From a virus (lineage: Duplodnaviria; Heunggongvirae; Uroviricota; Caudoviricetes), in IMG/VR virus record IMGVR_UViG_2681813268_000014, positions 1-6,873 of that record: a DNA stretch of 6,873 nucleotides; one strand, 5' to 3'. The position numbers and the translations under genes are program-made. Below are positions 1 to 6,873 of the stretch, piece after piece; the first letter of the stretch is position 1, and each line of letters begins with the position of its first letter. The notes beneath the pieces were generated by a model that saw only the letters and a program-made list of their open reading frames with translations, made no database searches and was not told where the DNA came from.

Positions 1-1
1 T

Positions 2-148
2 AGTATTAAGACTATCACTTATTTAAGTGATACTGGTTGTCTGGAGATTCAGGGGGCCAGTCTACGGACATTTTCTGCCTGTGGACCAGGAAAGTGCACG
101 GGTGCTTTCCACTCCCATGAAGCCCGGCAATCCGCGCAGATACAGTAA
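2..148 (+). CDS. 3'-terminal fragment of an upstream phage gene (5' end outside window); function unknown
   Basis: Frame 2 is open from the window edge to TAA at 146-148 (...SACGPGKCTGAFHSHEARQSAQIQ*). Same orientation as and 36 bp upstream of the rusA-Q operon. Absent from the ORF track because it has no in-window start. Confidence 0.3.
   Translation, partial: SIKTITYLSDTGCLEIQGASLRTFSACGPGKCTGAFHSHEARQSAQIQ
13..32. repeat. Perfect 9-bp inverted repeat TATCACTTA-tt-TAAGTGATA (possible protein-binding palindrome)
   Basis: Read directly from sequence; the arms are exact reverse complements with a 2-bp spacer. The TATCAC half-site resembles lambdoid operator half-sites. Lies inside the putative upstream coding fragment. 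Confidence 0.35.
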
Positions 149-184
149 TAAACGAACTGACAGCAGTAAGATGGAGCGTTTCTT

Positions 185-442
185 TTGAACAACCAGACAA
201 TGACTTTTACCCCTGAACAATTGCGTAAACACGCGCAGGAAATGCTGCGTCATGCTGAACAACTCGAAAAAACGGGCATAACAAAAGACGCTATCCGTAA
301 AGATATGGTACCCGCGCTTCGGGAACTGATGCAGGCGAAGCATCGCGCACAGAAAGCAGTAGATGAGCTGGTGGACTGTGTGGCAGAGCTGGAAACCAGA
401 GTCGGAAAGTTTGAAAAACTGGTGCAGGAGGTGCTGCGCTGA
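185..442 (+). CDS. Hypothetical small phage protein (85 aa, charged, helix-rich), first gene of the rusA-Q operon
   Basis: ORF 185..442 with TTG start and GGAG 7 nt upstream (alternative ATG at 200). Stop TGA overlaps the rusA ATG (ATGA at 442-445 region), indicating translational coupling. Confidence 0.55.
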   Translation: MNNQTMTFTPEQLRKHAQEMLRHAEQLEKTGITKDAIRKDMVPALRELMQAKHRAQKAVDELVDCVAELETRVGKFEKLVQEVLR

Positions 443-816
443 TGCGCCATGAGTTTATTTTACCTTATCCGCCGACGGTGAATACTTACTGGCGACGTCG
501 TGACAACACATATTTTGTATCAAAAGCCGGTGAGCGTTATCGCCGGGATGTGGCGCTTATTGTCCGTCAGCAGCGACTGAAATTAAGCCTGTCCGGAAGA
601 CTGGCGATAAAGATTATTGCAGAGCCACCGGATAAGCGCCGTCGTGACCTGGACAATATCCTGAAAGCACCACTGGATGCACTGACACATGCGGGAGTGT
701 TAATGGACGATGAGCAGTTTGATGAAATCAATATCGTTCGTGGTCAGCCAGTATCTGGTGGACGTCTGGGGGTGAAGATTTACCCCATAATGCATGAAGA
801 GCAGGTCAAAAAATGA
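442..816 (+). CDS. rusA: RusA-family crossover junction endodeoxyribonuclease (Holliday junction resolvase)
   Basis: 124-aa product with the RusA signatures LPYPPTVNTYWRRR and DKRRRDLDNILKAPLDALTHAGVLMDDEQ, closely matching E. coli RusA (LPWPPSNNRYYR ... [27 protein letters not shown]) as recalled from memory. Conserved lambdoid position just upstream of Q. Confidence 0.9.
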   Translation: MRHEFILPYPPTVNTYWRRRDNTYFVSKAGERYRRDVALIVRQQRLKLSLSGRLAIKIIAEPPDKRRRDLDNILKAPLDALTHAGVLMDDEQFDEINIVRGQPVSGGRLGVKIYPIMHEEQVKK

Positions 817-1667
817 AACTGGAAGATTTACCGAAATACTACTCCCCAAAATCCCCTTGCCTGACCGATGCATCGGCCTCAACGTCAAAAGATGCGCTGA
901 GTATCACTGATGTGATGGCCGCGCAGGGCATGACACAGAATCGGGCTGAGATGGGGTTTTCTGCGTTCCTGGGGAAAATGGGCATCAGTATGAATGACAG
1001 GGCGCGGGCAACAGAATTACTGGCAGATTATGCACTCAGTCGGTGCGATCGTGTGGCGGCGTTGAGAAAACTTCCGGCAGAAATAAAACCGGTAGTGATG
1101 CGCATTATGGCTTCGTACGCTTTTGAGGATTATGCCCGCAGCGCAGCGAGTAAAAAGCAGTGCCCTTGTTGCTATGGGGAAAAATTTATTGAAAGCGTAG
1201 TTTTTACAAACAAGGTCCAGTATCCGGATGGTAAGCCGCCGGTATGGGCAAAGTGTACGAAAGGTGTGTATCCGTCTTACTGGGAAGAATGGAAAAAAGT
1301 CAGGGAGGTGGTAAAAGTTGCCTGTCCGGAGTGTGGCGGAAAGGGTGAGGTTTCCACCGCCTGTAAGGATTGCCGTGGGCGTGGTGTCGCCATTCATCGT
1401 GAAGAGTCGGTAAAACGTGGTATGCCTGTTATCAGAGACTGCCAGCGTTGTGGTGGTCGTGGCTATGAAAGACTACCATCAACGGAGGCATTTAATGCTA
1501 TATGCGAGGTGACAAACCAGATAACACGCGCGTCATGGGAAAAAACAGTTAAGAAATTCTATGATGCGCTGGTGACTCGGTTTGATATTGAAGAAGCATG
1601 GGCTGAGCGGCAGTTAAAAAAGGTAACTAGGTTGATTTTTCCGGAATCTGTGGTAAATTCGTCATAA
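813..1667 (+). CDS. Late-gene antitermination protein Q-like, large zinc-finger variant
   Basis: 284-aa ORF whose ATG overlaps the rusA stop (ATGA). Contains three DnaJ-like CxxCxGxG motifs (CPECGGKG, CKDCRGRG, CQRCGGRG) plus additional CxxC. Position between rusA and the pR'/tR'/tRNA block is the canonical Q position; family assignment rests on synteny and motifs, not a homology search. Confidence 0.65.
   Translation: MKLEDLPKYYSPKSPCLTDASASTSKDALSITDVMAAQGMTQNRAEMGFSAFLGKMGISMNDRARATELLADYALSRCDRVAALRKLPAEIKPVVMRIMASYAFEDYARSAASKKQCPCCYGEKFIESVVFTNKVQYPDGKPPVWAKCTKGVYPSYWEEWKKVREVVKVACPECGGKGEVSTACKDCRGRGVAIHREESVKRGMPVIRDCQRCGGRGYERLPSTEAFNAICEVTNQITRASWEKTVKKFYDALVTRFDIEEAWAERQLKKVTRLIFPESVVNSS
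1632..1659 (+). promoter_or_regulatory. Candidate late promoter pR' (-35 TTGATT, 16-bp spacer, -10 TAAATT) overlapping the 3' end of Q
   Basis: Sigma70-like hexamers read from sequence, predicted start near 1666-1668. Placement directly after Q and before an intrinsic terminator matches lambdoid pR'/qut architecture. Confidence 0.4.
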
Positions 1668-1731
1668 CTATGGGCGTTTTATGCCTGACGTTAGAAGAGT
1701 TTCTACAACCCGCCGCCGAGCGGGTTTTTTA
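1667..1731 (+). ncRNA. Short pR'-to-tR' terminated transcript (6S-like/StxS-like late leader RNA), predicted ~65 nt
   Basis: Inferred from the predicted pR' start and the intrinsic terminator at 1708-1733. Early-terminated pR' transcripts are known sRNAs in lambdoid and Stx phages. Ends not mapped. Confidence 0.3.
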
Positions 1732-1733
1732 TT
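1708..1733 (+). terminator. Rho-independent terminator tR' (stem ACCCGC/GCGGGT, 6-nt loop, T6 tract)
   Basis: GC-rich hairpin aACCCGCcgccgaGCGGGT followed by TTTTTTATT, read directly from sequence, ~45 bp downstream of the Q stop. Confidence 0.65.
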
Positions 1734-1769
1734 GCGGAATTAATTACGGACCGTTATTATTCTGCTCCC

Positions 1770-1845
1770 GGCCCTTTAGCTCAGTGGTGAGAGCGAGCGA
1801 CTCATAATCGCCAGGTCGCTGGTTCAAATCCAGCAAGGGCCACCA
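1770..1845 (+). tRNA. ileZ: tRNA-Ile2 (anticodon CAU, lysidine-type, reads AUA); phage-borne ileZ-like
   Basis: 76-nt cloverleaf folded by hand: acceptor GGCCCTT/AAGGGCC, D-stem GCTC/GAGC, anticodon loop CTCATAA, T-arm GCTGG-TTCAAAT-CCAGC, discriminator A, encoded CCA. Near-identical in architecture to E. coli ileX, including the C4-G69/C5-G68 acceptor pairs. Confidence 0.88.
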
Positions 1846-1945
1846 TCACAAACCGCCATTAGCTTATCAGGAAGAGCAGACGACACGATAACAGGGTTGT
1901 TGGTGCGGGGGCGGGTCCCCGATGGCGGTCCATTATCGGTATTCA

Positions 1946-2022
1946 GCGTTGTTAGCTCAGCCGGACAGAGCAATTGCCTTCTAAGCAATCGGTCACTGGT
2001 TCGAATCCAGTACAGCGCGCCA
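1946..2022 (+). tRNA. tRNA-Arg (anticodon UCU, reads AGA); phage-borne argN/argO-like
   Basis: 77-nt cloverleaf folded by hand: acceptor GCGTTGT/ACAGCGC (one G-U pair), D-stem GCTC/GAGC, anticodon stem ATTGC/GCAAT with loop CTTCTAA, T-arm ACTGG-TTCGAAT-CCAGT, discriminator G, encoded CCA. Confidence 0.85.
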
Positions 2023-2132
2023 TATTCATTCTTCCAGATTCCTTCCGGCAGAGCCTTATACTGAAATATACCTGGCTCAGGATATTGTTGAAAATATTTT
2101 ATGTTTGTCAAAAATAAAAGTTCTGTTAAGTA

Positions 2133-2486
2133 TTGATTGAGTGTTTGTTATACGGTCTAATGGTTTTTTCAGCATTAAATATTTATCATTCATATGGTGT
2201 GGGTAGAGTGAATATTGATGAGGCGTCGGGGTGTTTCATCCTTAGGCAGCGTATTGATATAGTCAATGCAGCACGAGCAAAGGCCTTCAGCCGTTTGACA
2301 GTTTTGTTCTGTACTCCTGATCGTCTTTCGGGAAGAGACGTTATTATTCTGAATAGTGATGCTATACAGAGGGTTTGCGATGAGTTCATGGTTGCTAATT
2401 CAGAATTATTTGCTCTTGTTCAGGAGTACAACAGAATAGCCAGGACCTGTGGTATGGATGAACTTCGGATTACTCATCTGGGGTAG
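2133..2486 (+). CDS. Hypothetical cargo protein (117 aa from TTG, ~108 aa from ATG at 2160), no recognisable family
   Basis: Longest ORF in the segment immediately downstream of the phage tRNAs, in late-transcript orientation. No strong Shine-Dalgarno sequence; no motif I recognise. Confidence 0.4.
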   Translation: MIECLLYGLMVFSALNIYHSYGVGRVNIDEASGCFILRQRIDIVNAARAKAFSRLTVLFCTPDRLSGRDVIILNSDAIQRVCDEFMVANSELFALVQEYNRIARTCGMDELRITHLG

Positions 2487-2589
2487 ATACATATCTGGAT
2501 TATCACCTGTTACGGTAAAAAGTGATTGCTTACTGTTTTTGTGAATGGCATTGCAGCAGCCGGATAATGTCAGTGCTGGCTGACGGTGT

Positions 2590-2597
2590 GCTGGTGG
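2590..2597 (+). other. Chi site (5'-GCTGGTGG-3')
   Basis: Exact octamer match read from sequence; the only Chi octamer I found on the + strand of this window. Confidence 0.6.
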
Positions 2598-2689
2598 CGG
2601 GTGTGGTGGTTGTTGCTTTCCCGTTGCTGAAAAAGAAAACGCCAGACTGTTAGCCGGGTATCAGTTAGCGGGAGAAATTTTTAAATACT

Positions 2690-2976
2690 TCACAATTCAG
2701 GCGGTTGACTGTTGTCTGGTTTGCGGGGAGTTTGTTAAAAGAAACTGGCATGGTGAATCCCCCTGTGCGGAGGGGCAATCAGCGAGTAGGTATATGGGAT
2801 AATCGCGGATTCAGGTGCTGGTACTGAATTCACCGGGAGGCACCCGGCATCATGCAATGGCACATAGCGCCACTCTCCAGCCCTCTCCGGAGGGGCTTTT
2901 CTGTGCCGGATACATCACAGTTTCTGGAACCTTAGGTACTACAGTATCAGTCAGGGTGCTATATTTTCAGATGTGA
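2690..2976 (+). repeat. Copy 1 of a duplicated structured element (candidate sRNA gene) ending in an intrinsic terminator
   Basis: 2690-2897 aligns to 4798-5006 with one substitution (T2850 vs C4958) and one 1-nt indel in a C-run. Homology resumes after a ~62-bp copy-1-specific insertion (2898-2959) through TATATT...TCAGATGTGA (to 2976). Nested hairpins are listed in the findings. Confidence 0.85.
2879..2902 (+). terminator. Intrinsic terminator at the 3' end of repeat copy 1 (AGCCCTC-tccg-GAGGGGCT + TTTTCT)
   Basis: GC-rich 7/8-bp hairpin with tetraloop followed by a U-tract on the + strand. Confidence 0.6.
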
Positions 2977-3129
2977 TGAAAGCCTGTCAGCAGGCAGGGC
3001 GTATCGGAAATGACCCAGTAGAGAAAACGTTGACTCAGATACCGGTGCTGAGTTACCGGGAAACCGGCATCACATGACCGCTATCCTGAGGTGTACTGGC
3101 AATAGCGGACACTACCATTTGTTCTTTTT

Positions 3130-3948
3130 TTAAGCAGCCATCTGATGATATTTTTCCCTGAAGGCTGCCGGGGAGATATTCCCCAGACGAGAGTGACGAC
3201 GCTGACGATTGTAGAAAATCTCAATGTATTCCCGTATTACTGAGATGGCTTCATCCCGGTTATTAAAACGATAGTGGCTCAGGCTCTCATTTTTCAGCGT
3301 TCCCCAGAAGCTTTCCATCGGAGCGTTGTCGTAACAGTTACCTTTACGCGACATTGATGTTTTCAGACCAGACTGCTCCTGTATGACCCGGTAATCGTAT
3401 GCGCAGTACTGTGAACCTCGATCAGAGTGGTGGATTAGCCCGGCAGGTGGGCGCTGGCTCCTGAGCGCCATAAACAGGGCTTTACCTGTCAGCTCTTTTG
3501 TCATGCGCTCTCCCATGGCGTAGCCGACAATTTCGCACGTATAAACATCTTTGATGCCAGCGAGGTACAACCATCCCTCCTGTGTGGCAACATACGTCAG
3601 GTCCGCCACCCAGACCTGATTTGGTGCTGTAGGAGCGAACGTCTGGTTCAGCAGATTTGGCGCAACTGGCAGATTGTGGTTCGAGTTCGTAGTCGCTCTG
3701 AACTTGCGTTTCTGCTTACAGCGTAGCCTTAGCTCCTTACGAAGACGTGCCAGTCGGTCACGACCAACGATGATGCCATTCTCTGCCAGCTCCGTCTGGA
3801 GCCGCCGGGTTCCATATGTTTCGCGAGTGCGGATATGTGCCACCTTAATCTCCAGTTTTAGCCGCTCATCACTTTGTTTTCTGTCTGAGGGTTCATGCTG
3901 TACCCAGTTGTAATAACCGCTCCTGGATACACCAAATACCTGACACAT
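3130..3948 (-). CDS. IS3-family transposase OrfB (DDE integrase-like catalytic domain), expressed as an OrfAB fusion by -1 frameshift
   Basis: 272-aa ORF from the first ATG; the same frame stays open upstream to the slippery site near 4029-4035. Contains characteristic IS3-family OrfB segments (HHSDRGSQY..., KGNCYDNAPMESFWGTLKNE). Confidence 0.9.
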   Translation of the reverse strand: MCQVFGVSRSGYYNWVQHEPSDRKQSDERLKLEIKVAHIRTRETYGTRRLQTELAENGIIVGRDRLARLRKELRLRCKQKRKFRATTNSNHNLPVAPNLLNQTFAPTAPNQVWVADLTYVATQEGWLYLAGIKDVYTCEIVGYAMGERMTKELTGKALFMALRSQRPPAGLIHHSDRGSQYCAYDYRVIQEQSGLKTSMSRKGNCYDNAPMESFWGTLKNESLSHYRFNNRDEAISVIREYIEIFYNRQRRHSRLGNISPAAFREKYHQMAA

Positions 3949-3983
3949 CGCTTCAATGGGAAATTGTTGTCGCCATTGTTCGA

Positions 3984-4286
3984 TTAACGCGTATTTTTCA
4001 GCGACTCCTGTGCAAAATACGCTGTTGCTTTTTTTAATATATCTCGCTCAAGTCGTGCTTCATTTAAAGCCTTACGCAGTTGCATAACTTCAGATTCCAG
4101 CTCAGCCACTGTGCGGGAGCCTGGTGTATTGAGCCCTTTTCTTGCGGCGGTAACCCATTGTCCTAAAGTGCCTTCAGGAAGAGATAATCGGGAAGCGCCT
4201 TCACTGATCGAAAGTTGATTTTCAGGAACCGTTTTGACGGCTTCGGCTTTAAACTCCGTAGAGTAACGTTGGGTTTTTCTGCTCAT
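3984..4286 (-). CDS. IS3-family transposase OrfA (helix-turn-helix / leucine-zipper DNA-binding protein)
   Basis: 100-aa ORF with AAGGAG Shine-Dalgarno 7 nt upstream of the ATG. Sequence MSRKTQRYSTEFKAEAV...LERDILKKATAYFAQESL is typical of IS3-group OrfA and closely matches what I recall of IS600 OrfA. Confidence 0.9.
   Translation of the reverse strand: MSRKTQRYSTEFKAEAVKTVPENQLSISEGASRLSLPEGTLGQWVTAARKGLNTPGSRTVAELESEVMQLRKALNEARLERDILKKATAYFAQESLKNTR
4029..4035 (-). other. Programmed -1 ribosomal frameshift site A_AAA_AAA linking orfA to orfB
   Basis: T7 run on the + strand equals A7 on the coding strand, positioned in the orfA zero frame as TTA-AAA-AAA-GCA (L-K-K-A). The orfB frame is exactly -1 relative to orfA (coordinate arithmetic from the stops at 3984 and 3130). 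Confidence 0.75.
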
Positions 4287-4797
4287 TATTGGCTCCTTCT
4301 GATGCCATTCTATTTCAGGAAGGAGTGTCCGTTAAACTCAGGCTACCTCACTCCCGTAAAGACGGGAGTCAAGTTCCCGCTCCGACATAACTGCGTGCAA
4401 TGGATTTTGAAGGAACCGTCAGCCCATTCCCCGGAGGCAAACATGGGCTGGCAAAAGTGTAGCGGTATTAGGCACAGCTATTTAGGAAAGAGGGACCATC
4501 TCCATCTCATTAAATGGACCACGCCAGACAATTCACTGTCATGCTGATGCTGCACTGTGGGGACAGAATCACTCATGATGACTTCGATAATCGACGACAT
4601 TATTATTTGGCCGAGCTTTTAGGTCATATCTCAAATCGTTTGCCTAATATTGCTCCATTTTTTAATAAAAAATCAATCATTTTTGAATCTTTGCTTTTCA
4701 TTGCATTGTCAAGCATAGTGTCCCCACTATTTGCTTTTTGAAATTTTTTGTTTACATCAACCAATCCATTATTGATAAAATATTCTAGCACTTTATA

Positions 4798-5032
4798 TCA
4801 CAATTCAGGCGGTTGACTGTTGTCTGGTTTGCGGGGAGTTTGTTAAAAGAAACTGGCATGGTGAATCCCCCTGTGCGGAGGGGCAATCAGCGAGTAGGTA
4901 TATGGGATAATCGCGGATTCAGGTGCTGGTACTGAATTCACCGGGAGGCACCCGGCACCATGCAATGGCACATAGCGCCACTCTCCAGCCCCTCTCCGGA
5001 GGGGCTGTTTATATTGATTTTGTCAGATGTGA
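4798..5032 (+). repeat. Copy 2 of the duplicated structured element (candidate sRNA gene) ending in an intrinsic terminator
   Basis: Aligns to copy 1 at ~99% identity over ~209 bp with a tail match (TATATT...AGATGTGA). A promoter-like TTGATA-N16-TATATC lies at 4772-4799, immediately upstream. Confidence 0.85.
4987..5015 (+). terminator. Intrinsic terminator at the 3' end of repeat copy 2 (AGCCCCTC-tccg-GAGGGGCT + GTTTATATT)
   Basis: Perfect 8-bp GC-rich hairpin with tetraloop followed by a T-rich tract, read from sequence. Confidence 0.55.
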
Positions 5033-5041
5033 GTAAACTCC

Positions 5042-5377
5042 TTATGGACTTTGTTGTTTTAGCCCATAAGGACATATTTGCAGAGTGCAACGGTTATTAA
5101 AGCATTCATTCAATACGTTATCTGTATTTGTAGGGCATTCCTGGCTGTTTTTGATTAAATTCCAGAATGTTTTATTGAATGGTACTACGTTGTAAATGGT
5201 TACAGGTAGCACTTTGTTATTGAGCATGATGCCTGTGTGAGTCAGTGTAAATATACTTTCAGGAGGTAAGAAAGCATCCGATTGATACCAGATTATTAAT
5301 TTTATTTTACTCCATATGACTGAAAAAGATATTCCGCATGATGGCTGGATAACTGTATCAATCACAATCCACTTCAT
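5042..5377 (-). CDS. Hypothetical Cys-rich small protein (111 aa) encoded antisense to the late operon in AT-rich cargo DNA
   Basis: ATG preceded by AAGGAA Shine-Dalgarno at 5-6 nt spacing (coding strand AAACAAGGAAACTAA-ATG). Six cysteines, six AUA codons. Ends 5 bp from the repeat-2 homology tail and 27 bp from its terminator. No family recognised. Confidence 0.4.
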
Positions 5378-5637
5378 TTAGTTTCCTTGTTTATGCCTTG
5401 CTGGTGATGTTCTGAAAAGTATAAATGATATTTTTGATTGTAAACCATAGAGCAGAATTATTTTTCTGATGTTGTTTATTGTTTATTTAAATGCAGGGTG
5501 GTTTATATCTCGTCTTGTAGTTTATCCATGCATATCTGCTTGATGATGAGGTTTTTATTTAAGGTATGGTTTTGTGTTTTTTCTGTATTACATGTCAGGT
5601 ATTTTAAAGAATCATTTTTCAGATGGTGGAAAGAACC

Positions 5638-6873
5638 ATGGCATTTAAACACTATGATGTTGTCAGGGCGGCGTCGCCGTCAGATCTTGCGGAAAAGCTG
5701 ACACATAAACTGAAAGAGGGCTGGCAGCCGTTTGGTAGTCCGGTGGCCATAACCCCTTATACCCTGATGCAGGCGATTGCAGCAGAAGGTGATGTGGTCG
5801 TCAGTGGTGCAACTGAGCCGGAGTGGTACTACGTCATCGTACTGGCCGGGCAGTCCAATGCCATGGCTTACGGTGAAGGGCTTCCGCTTCCGGATTCATA
5901 CGATGCGCCCCATCCGCGCATTAAGCAACTGGCCCGTCGTAACACAGTGACTCCCGGTGGTGAAGTATGCGTATTTAACGACATCATTCCTGCTGACCAT
6001 TGTCTGCATGATGTTCAGGATATGAGTACGATTAACCATCCCCGGGCTGACCTGAGCAAAGGGCAGTACGGCTGTGTCGGACAGGGCTTACATATTGCCA
6101 AAAAACTGCTTCCGTATATCCCTAATAATGCGGGGATCCTGCTGGTACCATGCTGTCGTGGTGGTTCGGCATTCACCCAGGGCACGGAGGGGACATTCAG
6201 CGAGTCCACGGGAGCCAGTCAGGATTCGGCTCGCTGGGGAGTGGGTAAGCCGTTATATCAGGATCTGCTTTTCCGCACGAAGGCAGCATTGCAGAAAAAC
6301 CCGAAAAACGTTTTGCTGGCGATATGCTGGATGCAGGGGGAATTCGATATGACGAATGCCAGTTACGCCCAGCAGCCAGCAGCATTTCTTGCAATGGTAC
6401 AGCAGTTCCGTGCTGACCTTGCCGGGCTGGCAGCGCAGTGTCACGGTGGAAGTCCGGCATCAGTCCCCTGGATTTGTGGCGACACGACATACGCGTGGAA
6501 ACAAGAACACGGTACGCAATATGAAGTGGTATATGGTGCATATAAAGGTAAAGAATCCCAGCAGATTTATTTTGTTCCCTTTATGACCGATGGTAGCGGA
6601 GTTAATACACCGACAAACAACCCGTCAGAAGATCCTGATATTGCCGGGTCTGGTTATTACGGTTCGGCATCCCGAACGAACAAAAACTGGGTATCATCAA
6701 ATCGCCCGACGCATTTCAGCTCATGGGCGCGTCGTGGCATTATTCCCGATCGTATGGCAACTGCTATTCTGAACGTAGCCGGTCGCACCTTAGCCTTCAT
6801 TAGTGGTAAGGCACCGGAAATCAAACCCTCGCCCGGCGGCGACACGCCATCGGGGCCGTCTGAAGATGCATCC
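5638..6873 (+). CDS. nanS-p: Prophage sialate O-acetylesterase (NanS-p-like; N-terminal DUF1737-like region plus SGNH/SASA esterase domain), 3' end beyond window
   Basis: Uninterrupted 412-codon frame from ATG 5638 to the window edge; missing from the ORF track because there is no in-window stop. Contains the esterase motif GQSNAMAYGEG. Occupies the conserved position between the stx/cargo slot and the lysis genes in Stx-type prophages. Confidence 0.82.
   Translation, partial: MAFKHYDVVRAASPSDLAEKLTHKLKEGWQPFGSPVAITPYTLMQAIAAEGDVVVSGATEPEWYYVIVLAGQSNAMAYGEGLPLPDSYDAPHPRIKQLARRNTVTPGGEVCVFNDIIPADHCLHDVQDMSTINHPRADLSKGQYGCVGQGLHIAKKLLPYIPNNAGILLVPCCRGGSAFTQGTEGTFSESTGASQDSARWGVGKPLYQDLLFRTKAALQKNPKNVLLAICWMQGEFDMTNASYAQQPAAFLAMVQQFRADLAGLAAQCHGGSPASVPWICGDTTYAWKQEHGTQYEVVYGAYKGKESQQIYFVPFMTDGSGVNTPTNNPSEDPDIAGSGYYGSASRTNKNWVSSNRPTHFSSWARRGIIPDRMATAILNVAGRTLAFISGKAPEIKPSPGGDTPSGPSEDAS

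Follow-up and report, generated by a model that had tools for sequence, protein, structure and literature searches.

A minus-strand phage gene lying between STnc100 and a nanS-p-like gene is almost certainly iraL, which encodes an RssB anti-adaptor

What is encoded by the minus-strand open reading frame (ORF) that runs against the late genes in a 6,873-nucleotide Caudoviricetes sequence (IMG/VR record IMGVR_UViG_2681813268_000014, positions 1 to 6,873; the whole of this stretch is referred to here as the window), and is it an independently expressed gene? A previous sequence-only reading had described this ORF as a 111-aa, Cys-rich frame of no recognised family, and had proposed that it was either a novel accessory or anti-defence protein or a chance ORF in AT-rich DNA. 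The ORF was borne out by our analysis, with an ATG start and a TAA stop, as were the AAGGAA ribosome-binding site and the AT-rich divergent spacer shared with nanS-p that had been reported for it. Six cysteines had been claimed, and five were counted in the 111-aa product (positions 14, 81, 92, 97, and 102). The ORF and its neighbors are as follows.

5042-5377, minus strand: coding sequence of iraL, 111 aa, with the ATG at 5375-5377 and the TAA at 5042-5044 (ORF call and homology).
5383-5388, minus strand: Shine-Dalgarno-like AAGGAA, 5 nt 5' of the iraL ATG (sequence reading).
4827-5016, plus strand: STnc100 sRNA gene (Rfam RF02076, 132 bits against a gathering score of 47), convergent with iraL.
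4986-5007, plus strand: terminator hairpin of STnc100 (terminator scan), 34 nt past the iraL stop codon.
5638-6873, plus strand: 5' part of a nanS-p-like esterase gene with DUF1737 (PF08410) and SASA (PF03629) domains, phrog_143, which exits the window.

The spacer between iraL and the nanS-p-like gene (5378-5637) has 260 bp and 30% G+C. The nanS-p-like gene, divergent from iraL, is apparently intact across the 412 codons that lie inside the window; in the related prophages that were examined, it precedes the holin as the next gene on the late strand.

The identity of the product was established by several comparisons. The protein was identical in 111 of 111 residues to C_RS06710/WP_000871291.1 of strain CFT073, and the coding sequence matched CFT073 iraL at 335 of 336 nucleotides, the single difference being synonymous, which places it in the iraL lineage as delimited in the IraL paper (nucleotide identity of 95% or more to CFT073 iraL across the whole coding sequence; Hryckowian et al., 2014, PMC4045071). 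In that paper IraL was located on the potB island of CFT073 and was found to be 58.9% identical to IraM. The gene for WP_000871291.1 sits in a prophage integrated next to potB/potC/potD, and it is the sole IraM-family gene annotated in the CFT073 stretch examined around these three genes. Identity to K-12 IraM (b1160) was 62%, gap-free across 107 residues; 66 identities were counted, and 66/112 gives 58.9%, the published figure. The profile search that the previous reading had called for identified the family through NCBIfam NF007393, "anti-adapter protein IraM", with 162 bits against a curated cutoff of 121 and with residues 1-110 aligned onto profile positions 1-113 of 114. Additionally, the PDB search returned chain A of 8twd (IraM residues 1-78) with E=9e-32 over residues 1-78, and PGAP labels the same gene "anti-adapter protein IraM" in E. 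coli genomes. By the NCBIfam profile, 8twd chain A, K-12 IraM and the identity to the CFT073 protein, the ORF that had been said to belong to no recognisable family is a member of the IraM/IraL family. We regard it as almost certain that this ORF is iraL, a prophage-borne lysogenic-conversion gene encoding an RssB anti-adaptor; its product is already known and characterised, the family is not novel, and none of the observations speaks against this identification.

The possibility that the frame is an untranslated chance ORF was judged negligible. Its composition would suit that explanation, as the G+C content of iraL is low (35%) and equal across all three codon positions, but only 3 of 2000 mononucleotide shuffles of 4991-5640 contained an ATG-initiated frame of 111 aa or more. 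The conservation and dN/dS check proposed along with the previous reading was carried out by the Nei-Gojobori method, and a dN/dS of 0.16-0.17 was obtained both against K-12 iraM (dS 1.5) and against the paralogue of Stx2 phages (dS 0.95). The frame is intact in the homologues, down to those of 32% identity found in Pseudescherichia and in one Enterobacteriaceae MAG, and published experiments exist with the His-tagged protein and with deletion phenotypes. A dN/dS of about 0.16 across lineages with dS of at least 0.95, together with this wide conservation, refutes the chance-ORF alternative, and iraL is under purifying selection as a coding frame. The 84 iraL copies gathered from viral and genome collections comprised 11 distinct nucleotide sequences encoding one protein, the loci behind them being the best-scoring 80 of 279 and so pre-selected for protein identity. 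At least 80% of window positions 4800-5700 was present in 1431 of 5426 complete E. coli genomes. A decayed iraM-like copy, with four in-frame stops and 32% residual identity, was also observed in E. coli ECGI0523 (L013:6001-6318), where it occupies the position that iraM has in K-12, between ycgX and mcrA.

The function of this protein has been described in other strains. [quoted passage not shown] Deletion of iraL in CFT073 shortens the log-phase half-life of sigma-S from about 5 to about 2.5 min, log-phase sigma-S is lowered in an S. sonnei iraL mutant, and sigma-S is raised in K-12 carrying on a plasmid only iraL with its native promoter, from -100 (PMC4045071). In the crystal structure of IraM(1-78) with RssB (8TWD), IraM folds into a beta-barrel with hairpin and helix, an architecture that besides IraM has been seen only in PmrD, and it bridges both RssB domains, covering the alpha4-beta5-alpha5 face that binds sigma-S (PMC10844676). 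The IraM contact residues given in that work were mapped onto IraL by gap-free pairwise alignment, as follows.

Cluster I of IraM, contacting the RssB N-terminal domain (I4, I6, W22, K26, I42): 5 of 5 identical in IraL.
Cluster II of IraM, contacting the RssB C-terminal domain (T13, C14, F18, W30, L75): 3 of 5 identical in IraL (T13S, L75I).
Cluster III of IraM, contacting the RssB linker and helix alpha8 (I61, Y62, H63, I64): 2 of 4 identical in IraL (H63N, I64V).

By this count the RssB-contact residues of IraM are conserved in IraL; the two non-identical residues of cluster II are conservative changes, and Pro66 is kept. We infer that this pattern, complete for the N-terminal domain, fits the binding of IraL to the RssB N-terminal domain only. 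An AlphaFold2 model of IraL from a 16-sequence alignment reached a mean pLDDT of 36.9 and a pTM of 0.24, values too low for use, and the putative fold of IraL is assigned solely by sequence homology to 8TWD.

A comparison with PmrD was also made. PmrD (PF11183) is induced by PhoP and acts as a connector by binding the phospho-PmrA receiver domain. PmrD and IraM/IraL are alike in being small connectors that dock on the receiver domain of a response regulator; the target of PmrD is PmrA, not RssB, and PmrD has no C-terminal four-Cys tail. PmrD and IraM share the same unusual fold, with an rmsd of about 1 A to 4HN7 (PMC10844676). When the family alignment was compared with E. coli PmrD by hhalign, a marginal probability of 11.8% was obtained; this value was too weak, so homology to PmrD at the sequence level was dropped, and the link rests on the published structure comparison.

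Could the ORF still be a novel accessory or anti-defence protein without known relatives that needs the phage tRNA-Ile2 for its translation? The full-length match in PHROGs was to phrog_4407, listed as "unknown function", and in a Pfam scan (PF11183.13 model set) neither IraL nor K-12 IraM nor a 98%-identical homologue was assigned to a family, even with E up to 10. PF11183.15, the PmrD accession, is precomputed on 19 of 20 database homologues, a label that evidently stems from a model more recent than PF11183.13. The prophage also carries an ileZ-like tRNA, and six AUA codons had been reported in the ORF, a number which agreed with our count (6 ATA among 13 Ile codons). The tRNA is placed as follows.

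1770-1845: tRNA with a CAT anticodon, identical to the PGAP tRNA-Ile of CFT073 and to the ileZ-type tRNA of an Stx2a phage.

The previous reading had called this tRNA-Ile2 adjacent and had proposed that it supplies the AUA codons. The identity of the tRNA was supported by that of CFT073, but its location was not, since it lies 3.2 kb from iraL. The AUA share of iraL (6/13) equals the expectation from a third-position A fraction of 0.43, and it is equally high in K-12 iraM, in which 8 of 18 Ile codons are AUA and for which no tRNA gene is annotated in the surrounding 12 kb. In addition, iraL is active in K-12 from the plasmid with the stretch from -100 through the coding sequence alone. AUA richness is a compositional trait of the IraM/IraL family, and a codon supply by the phage tRNA is unneeded; the phage tRNA-Ile may help iraL translation but is not required. 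The product is identical to a characterised protein and scores above the IraM cutoff of NCBIfam, so that the "novel family" part of this explanation is already refuted, and the explanation as a whole is highly improbable. The anti-defence proposal was not supported, the product being IraL, an experimentally characterised RssB anti-adaptor (PMC4045071), and no link between IraL and phage defence was found in the IraL literature searched. The middle tRNA of the usual Ile-Arg-Arg array was seen to be degenerate at 1846-1945, where it was called neither by ARAGORN nor by Rfam; its acceptor ends align with the tRNA-Arg(TCG) of CFT073 and of the Stx2a phage, and its anticodon-arm region is scrambled.

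The next question is whether iraL has its own promoter in the window. The 5'-RACE sequence of CFT073 iraL, ACATCACCAGCAAGGCATAAACAAGGAAACCA (PMC4045071), matches window 5410-5379 at 31 of 32 bases. The resulting 5' UTR of 33 nt agrees with the "-100 to +33" fragment used for complementation in that work, and the predicted -10/-35 elements of iraL were described there as similar to the sigma-70 consensus (PMC4045071). The corresponding elements of the window are as follows.

5378-5410, minus strand: 5' UTR of iraL, 33 nt, in which 5410 is the equivalent of the CFT073 5'-RACE start.
5418-5444, minus strand: candidate sigma-70 promoter, with TATACT at 5418-5423, TTTACA at 5439-5444 and a 15-nt spacer.

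The hexamers, TATACT as the -10 element and TTTACA upstream of it, were assigned in the present analysis and probably form a sigma-70 promoter. A generic sigma-70 scan missed this RACE-supported promoter because the 15-nt spacer falls outside the 16-18 nt allowed; it gave two minus-strand hits, one within the coding sequence and the other upstream of the mapped start. The proposal that the ORF is an independently expressed moron antisense to the late genes was upheld, its own promoter lying within 5378-5637 and the RACE start corresponding to 5410, and iraL is a lysogenic-conversion "moron".

The 140 nt upstream of the ATG differ from those of CFT073 at three positions (about 98% identity), namely A/T just 3' of TTTACA, A/G at -2 and T/C in the UTR, which places them among the iraL-type promoter/5' UTR regions (at least 96% identity to the CFT073 upstream region; PMC4045071). 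These differences, one of them directly beside TTTACA, raise the alternative that a functional IraL is encoded, but from a weak or silent promoter allele, as a carried-along copy with little effect on the RpoS of the host. The iraL2 copy of JJ1886, a -35 point mutant whose expression was reported as unknown (PMC4045071), is a point in its favor. Against it, 49 of the 84 fetched copies carry the upstream allele of the window, more than any other allele; the coding sequence is fully preserved; and the -10 hexamer, transcript start and ribosome-binding site are all intact. Sigma-S also falls in the S. sonnei iraL deletion, whose promoter allele may differ. We consider this alternative unlikely.

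A PhoP-box-like direct repeat with one mismatch, TGTTTATTGTTTATTTA, was noticed at 5473-5489 (plus strand), 63-79 nt upstream of the iraL start and inside the -100 fragment that is sufficient for complementation. A site with one mismatch arises in 27 of 200 shuffles and the region is AT-rich, so that this one is non-significant alone and may be taken as a lead only, a candidate regulatory site. Up-regulation of iraL has been reported in a fur mutant of CFT073 (PMC7157518).

The position of the gene is also conserved. The order Q, tRNAs, cargo (stx2AB or STnc100), iraL/M on the minus strand, nanS-p and holin is shared by the related prophages and the Stx2 phages that were examined. In the CFT073 prophage it reads antiterminator, tRNA-Ile, tRNA-Arg, tRNA-Arg, iraM-like gene on the minus strand, DUF1737 gene, holin and lysozyme, and iraL is convergent with the STnc100 gene in both the window and CFT073. 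In the window, the Q antiterminator is encoded at 813-1667 (plus strand; 284 aa, PF03589 type), with a DnaJ-like CXXCXGXG zinc-finger match (E=1.2e-6) that is below the Pfam cutoff. The window thus shares with CFT073 an identical IraL, the gene order Q-tRNAs-STnc100-iraL(-)-DUF1737/nanS-p-holin, the 5' UTR and the -10 region. By contrast, it carries an IS600/ospC4 insertion and a duplicated STnc100 upstream, its nanS-p is apparently intact in the part inside the window whereas that of CFT073 is truncated, and one synonymous change in the coding sequence and three changes in the promoter/UTR set it apart.

The published functions and this arrangement suggest how IraL would act in a lysogen. The AT-rich spacer would supply the gene with a promoter of its own, from which transcription would run leftward and antisense to the late operon of the phage, and iraL would in this way be expressed in the lysogen during ordinary growth. 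The product would be a cytoplasmic protein of 111 aa related to IraM, whose solved fold resembles PmrD. IraL would bind the receiver (N-terminal) domain of the adaptor RssB and probably occupy the alpha4-beta5-alpha5 face used for sigma-S, the exact binding mode being drawn by homology from the IraM-RssB structure. RssB would then be unable to deliver sigma-S (RpoS) to ClpXP, and the half-life and level of log-phase sigma-S would rise, so that the general stress response would be armed in advance. To reach nanS-p and the lysis genes, transcripts that start at the late promoter downstream of Q have to traverse iraL in antisense; thus, we infer that in the lysogen convergent transcription would be kept off iraL by the STnc100 terminator, and that upon induction the antiterminated, Q-dependent late transcription would oppose iraL and shut it off.

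The insertion upstream of iraL was also delimited. Strong STnc100 (RF02076) copies were found at 2719-2908 (plus strand, 122 bits) and at 4827-5016, and a weak third match of 22 bits, below the gathering score, at 2947-3135 (plus strand). Window positions 439-2900 and 4798-6873 map to one continuous sequence in related loci, in which a single STnc100 copy aligns with 2678-2900 as well as with 4798-5010; therefore, 2901-4797 is an insertion flanked by duplicated STnc100. This stretch of about 1.9 kb is absent from 80 related viral loci, and besides the weak third STnc100-like match it contains the following genes.

3130-3948, minus strand: orfB of IS600.
3984-4286, minus strand: orfA of IS600.
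4624-4791, minus strand: 3' end (55 codons) of an OspC-family type III effector gene (PF06128, E=8e-26).

Positions 3086-4797 (IS600 and ospC) are 96% identical to the IS600/ospC4 region of pINV-like invasion plasmids of EIEC, which points to a Shigella or EIEC origin and to recombination at the sRNA gene. The whole arrangement was found in no complete E. coli genome when at least 80% coverage of 2600-5100 was sought, an absence that suggests Shigella or EIEC as the source. Small minus-strand ORFs inside the STnc100 copies (2735-2863 and 4843-4971) look spurious; the equivalent STnc100 ORF is labeled "hypothetical protein, partial" by PGAP in CFT073 and DLI.5a. STnc100 has been related to the PasD sRNAs in a 2026 preprint.

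Within the family, IraL was compared with its K-12 relative. K-12 IraM (YcgW, b1160) is a PhoP/PhoQ-induced RssB anti-adaptor. The two proteins are alike in their four C-terminal cysteines, in the five identical contacts with the RssB N-terminal domain and in being encoded on the minus strand beside prophage remnants; they differ in that the upstream regions are unrelated and in the four additional C-terminal residues (QQSP) of IraL. Mg starvation induces IraM, which contacts both domains of RssB, whereas IraL is expressed in log phase and binds the N-terminal domain only (PMC4045071).

Moreover, the IraM-like proteins of Stx2 phages (for example LC567834 BCI50065.1; some records annotate the gene as iraM) are 73% identical to IraL and 65% identical to K-12 IraM and form a distinct third lineage. 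Their genes share with iraL the orientation and the slot between the cargo (stx2AB) and nanS-p; they lie on the opposite strand immediately after stx2B, at L004:5001-5324 in the Stx2a phage Stx2_EH1910 and in 40 other Stx2 phage records. Judged from titles and abstracts, no functional study of this lineage was found in the literature. This lineage would have escaped the IraL survey, which applied 95%-identity criteria.

A last feature concerns the C-terminus of the protein, which was defined by alignment as follows.

5042-5137, minus strand: IraL residues 81-111, the four-Cys tail.

All 16 aligned homologues (53-98% identity) retain C81, C92, C97 and C102, as do the 32%-identity homologues; Cys14 varies among homologues. 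The motif of the tail is C81-P, nine variable residues, C92, four variable residues, C97, four variable residues, and C102-P-Y/H-G; its first gap is of 10 residues in one 32%-identity homologue, and its second gap is of 5 in three divergent homologues. The tail of IraM was removed for crystallography and was called less conserved and flexible (PMC10844676), and no metal or redox role for the four C-terminal cysteines was mentioned in the IraL/IraM literature searched. We tentatively suggest, as a speculative possibility raised by this conservation, that the four cysteines might form a metal-binding or redox-sensing knuckle controlling the stability or activity of IraL/IraM. If this were true, the IraL/IraM anti-adaptors would be direct sensors, and not purely transcriptionally controlled switches.

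The identification of this ORF as iraL strikes one "novel Cys-rich moron" off the candidate list. Since phrog_4407 and the Pfam release used leave the family unnamed, readers working from the sequence only will keep rediscovering IraL. The effect of IraL in uropathogenic E. coli and Shigella is a higher RpoS level during growth. EHEC strains with high log-phase RpoS and yet without iraL have been reported (PMC4045071), and the lineage found in Stx2 phages might explain such strains.
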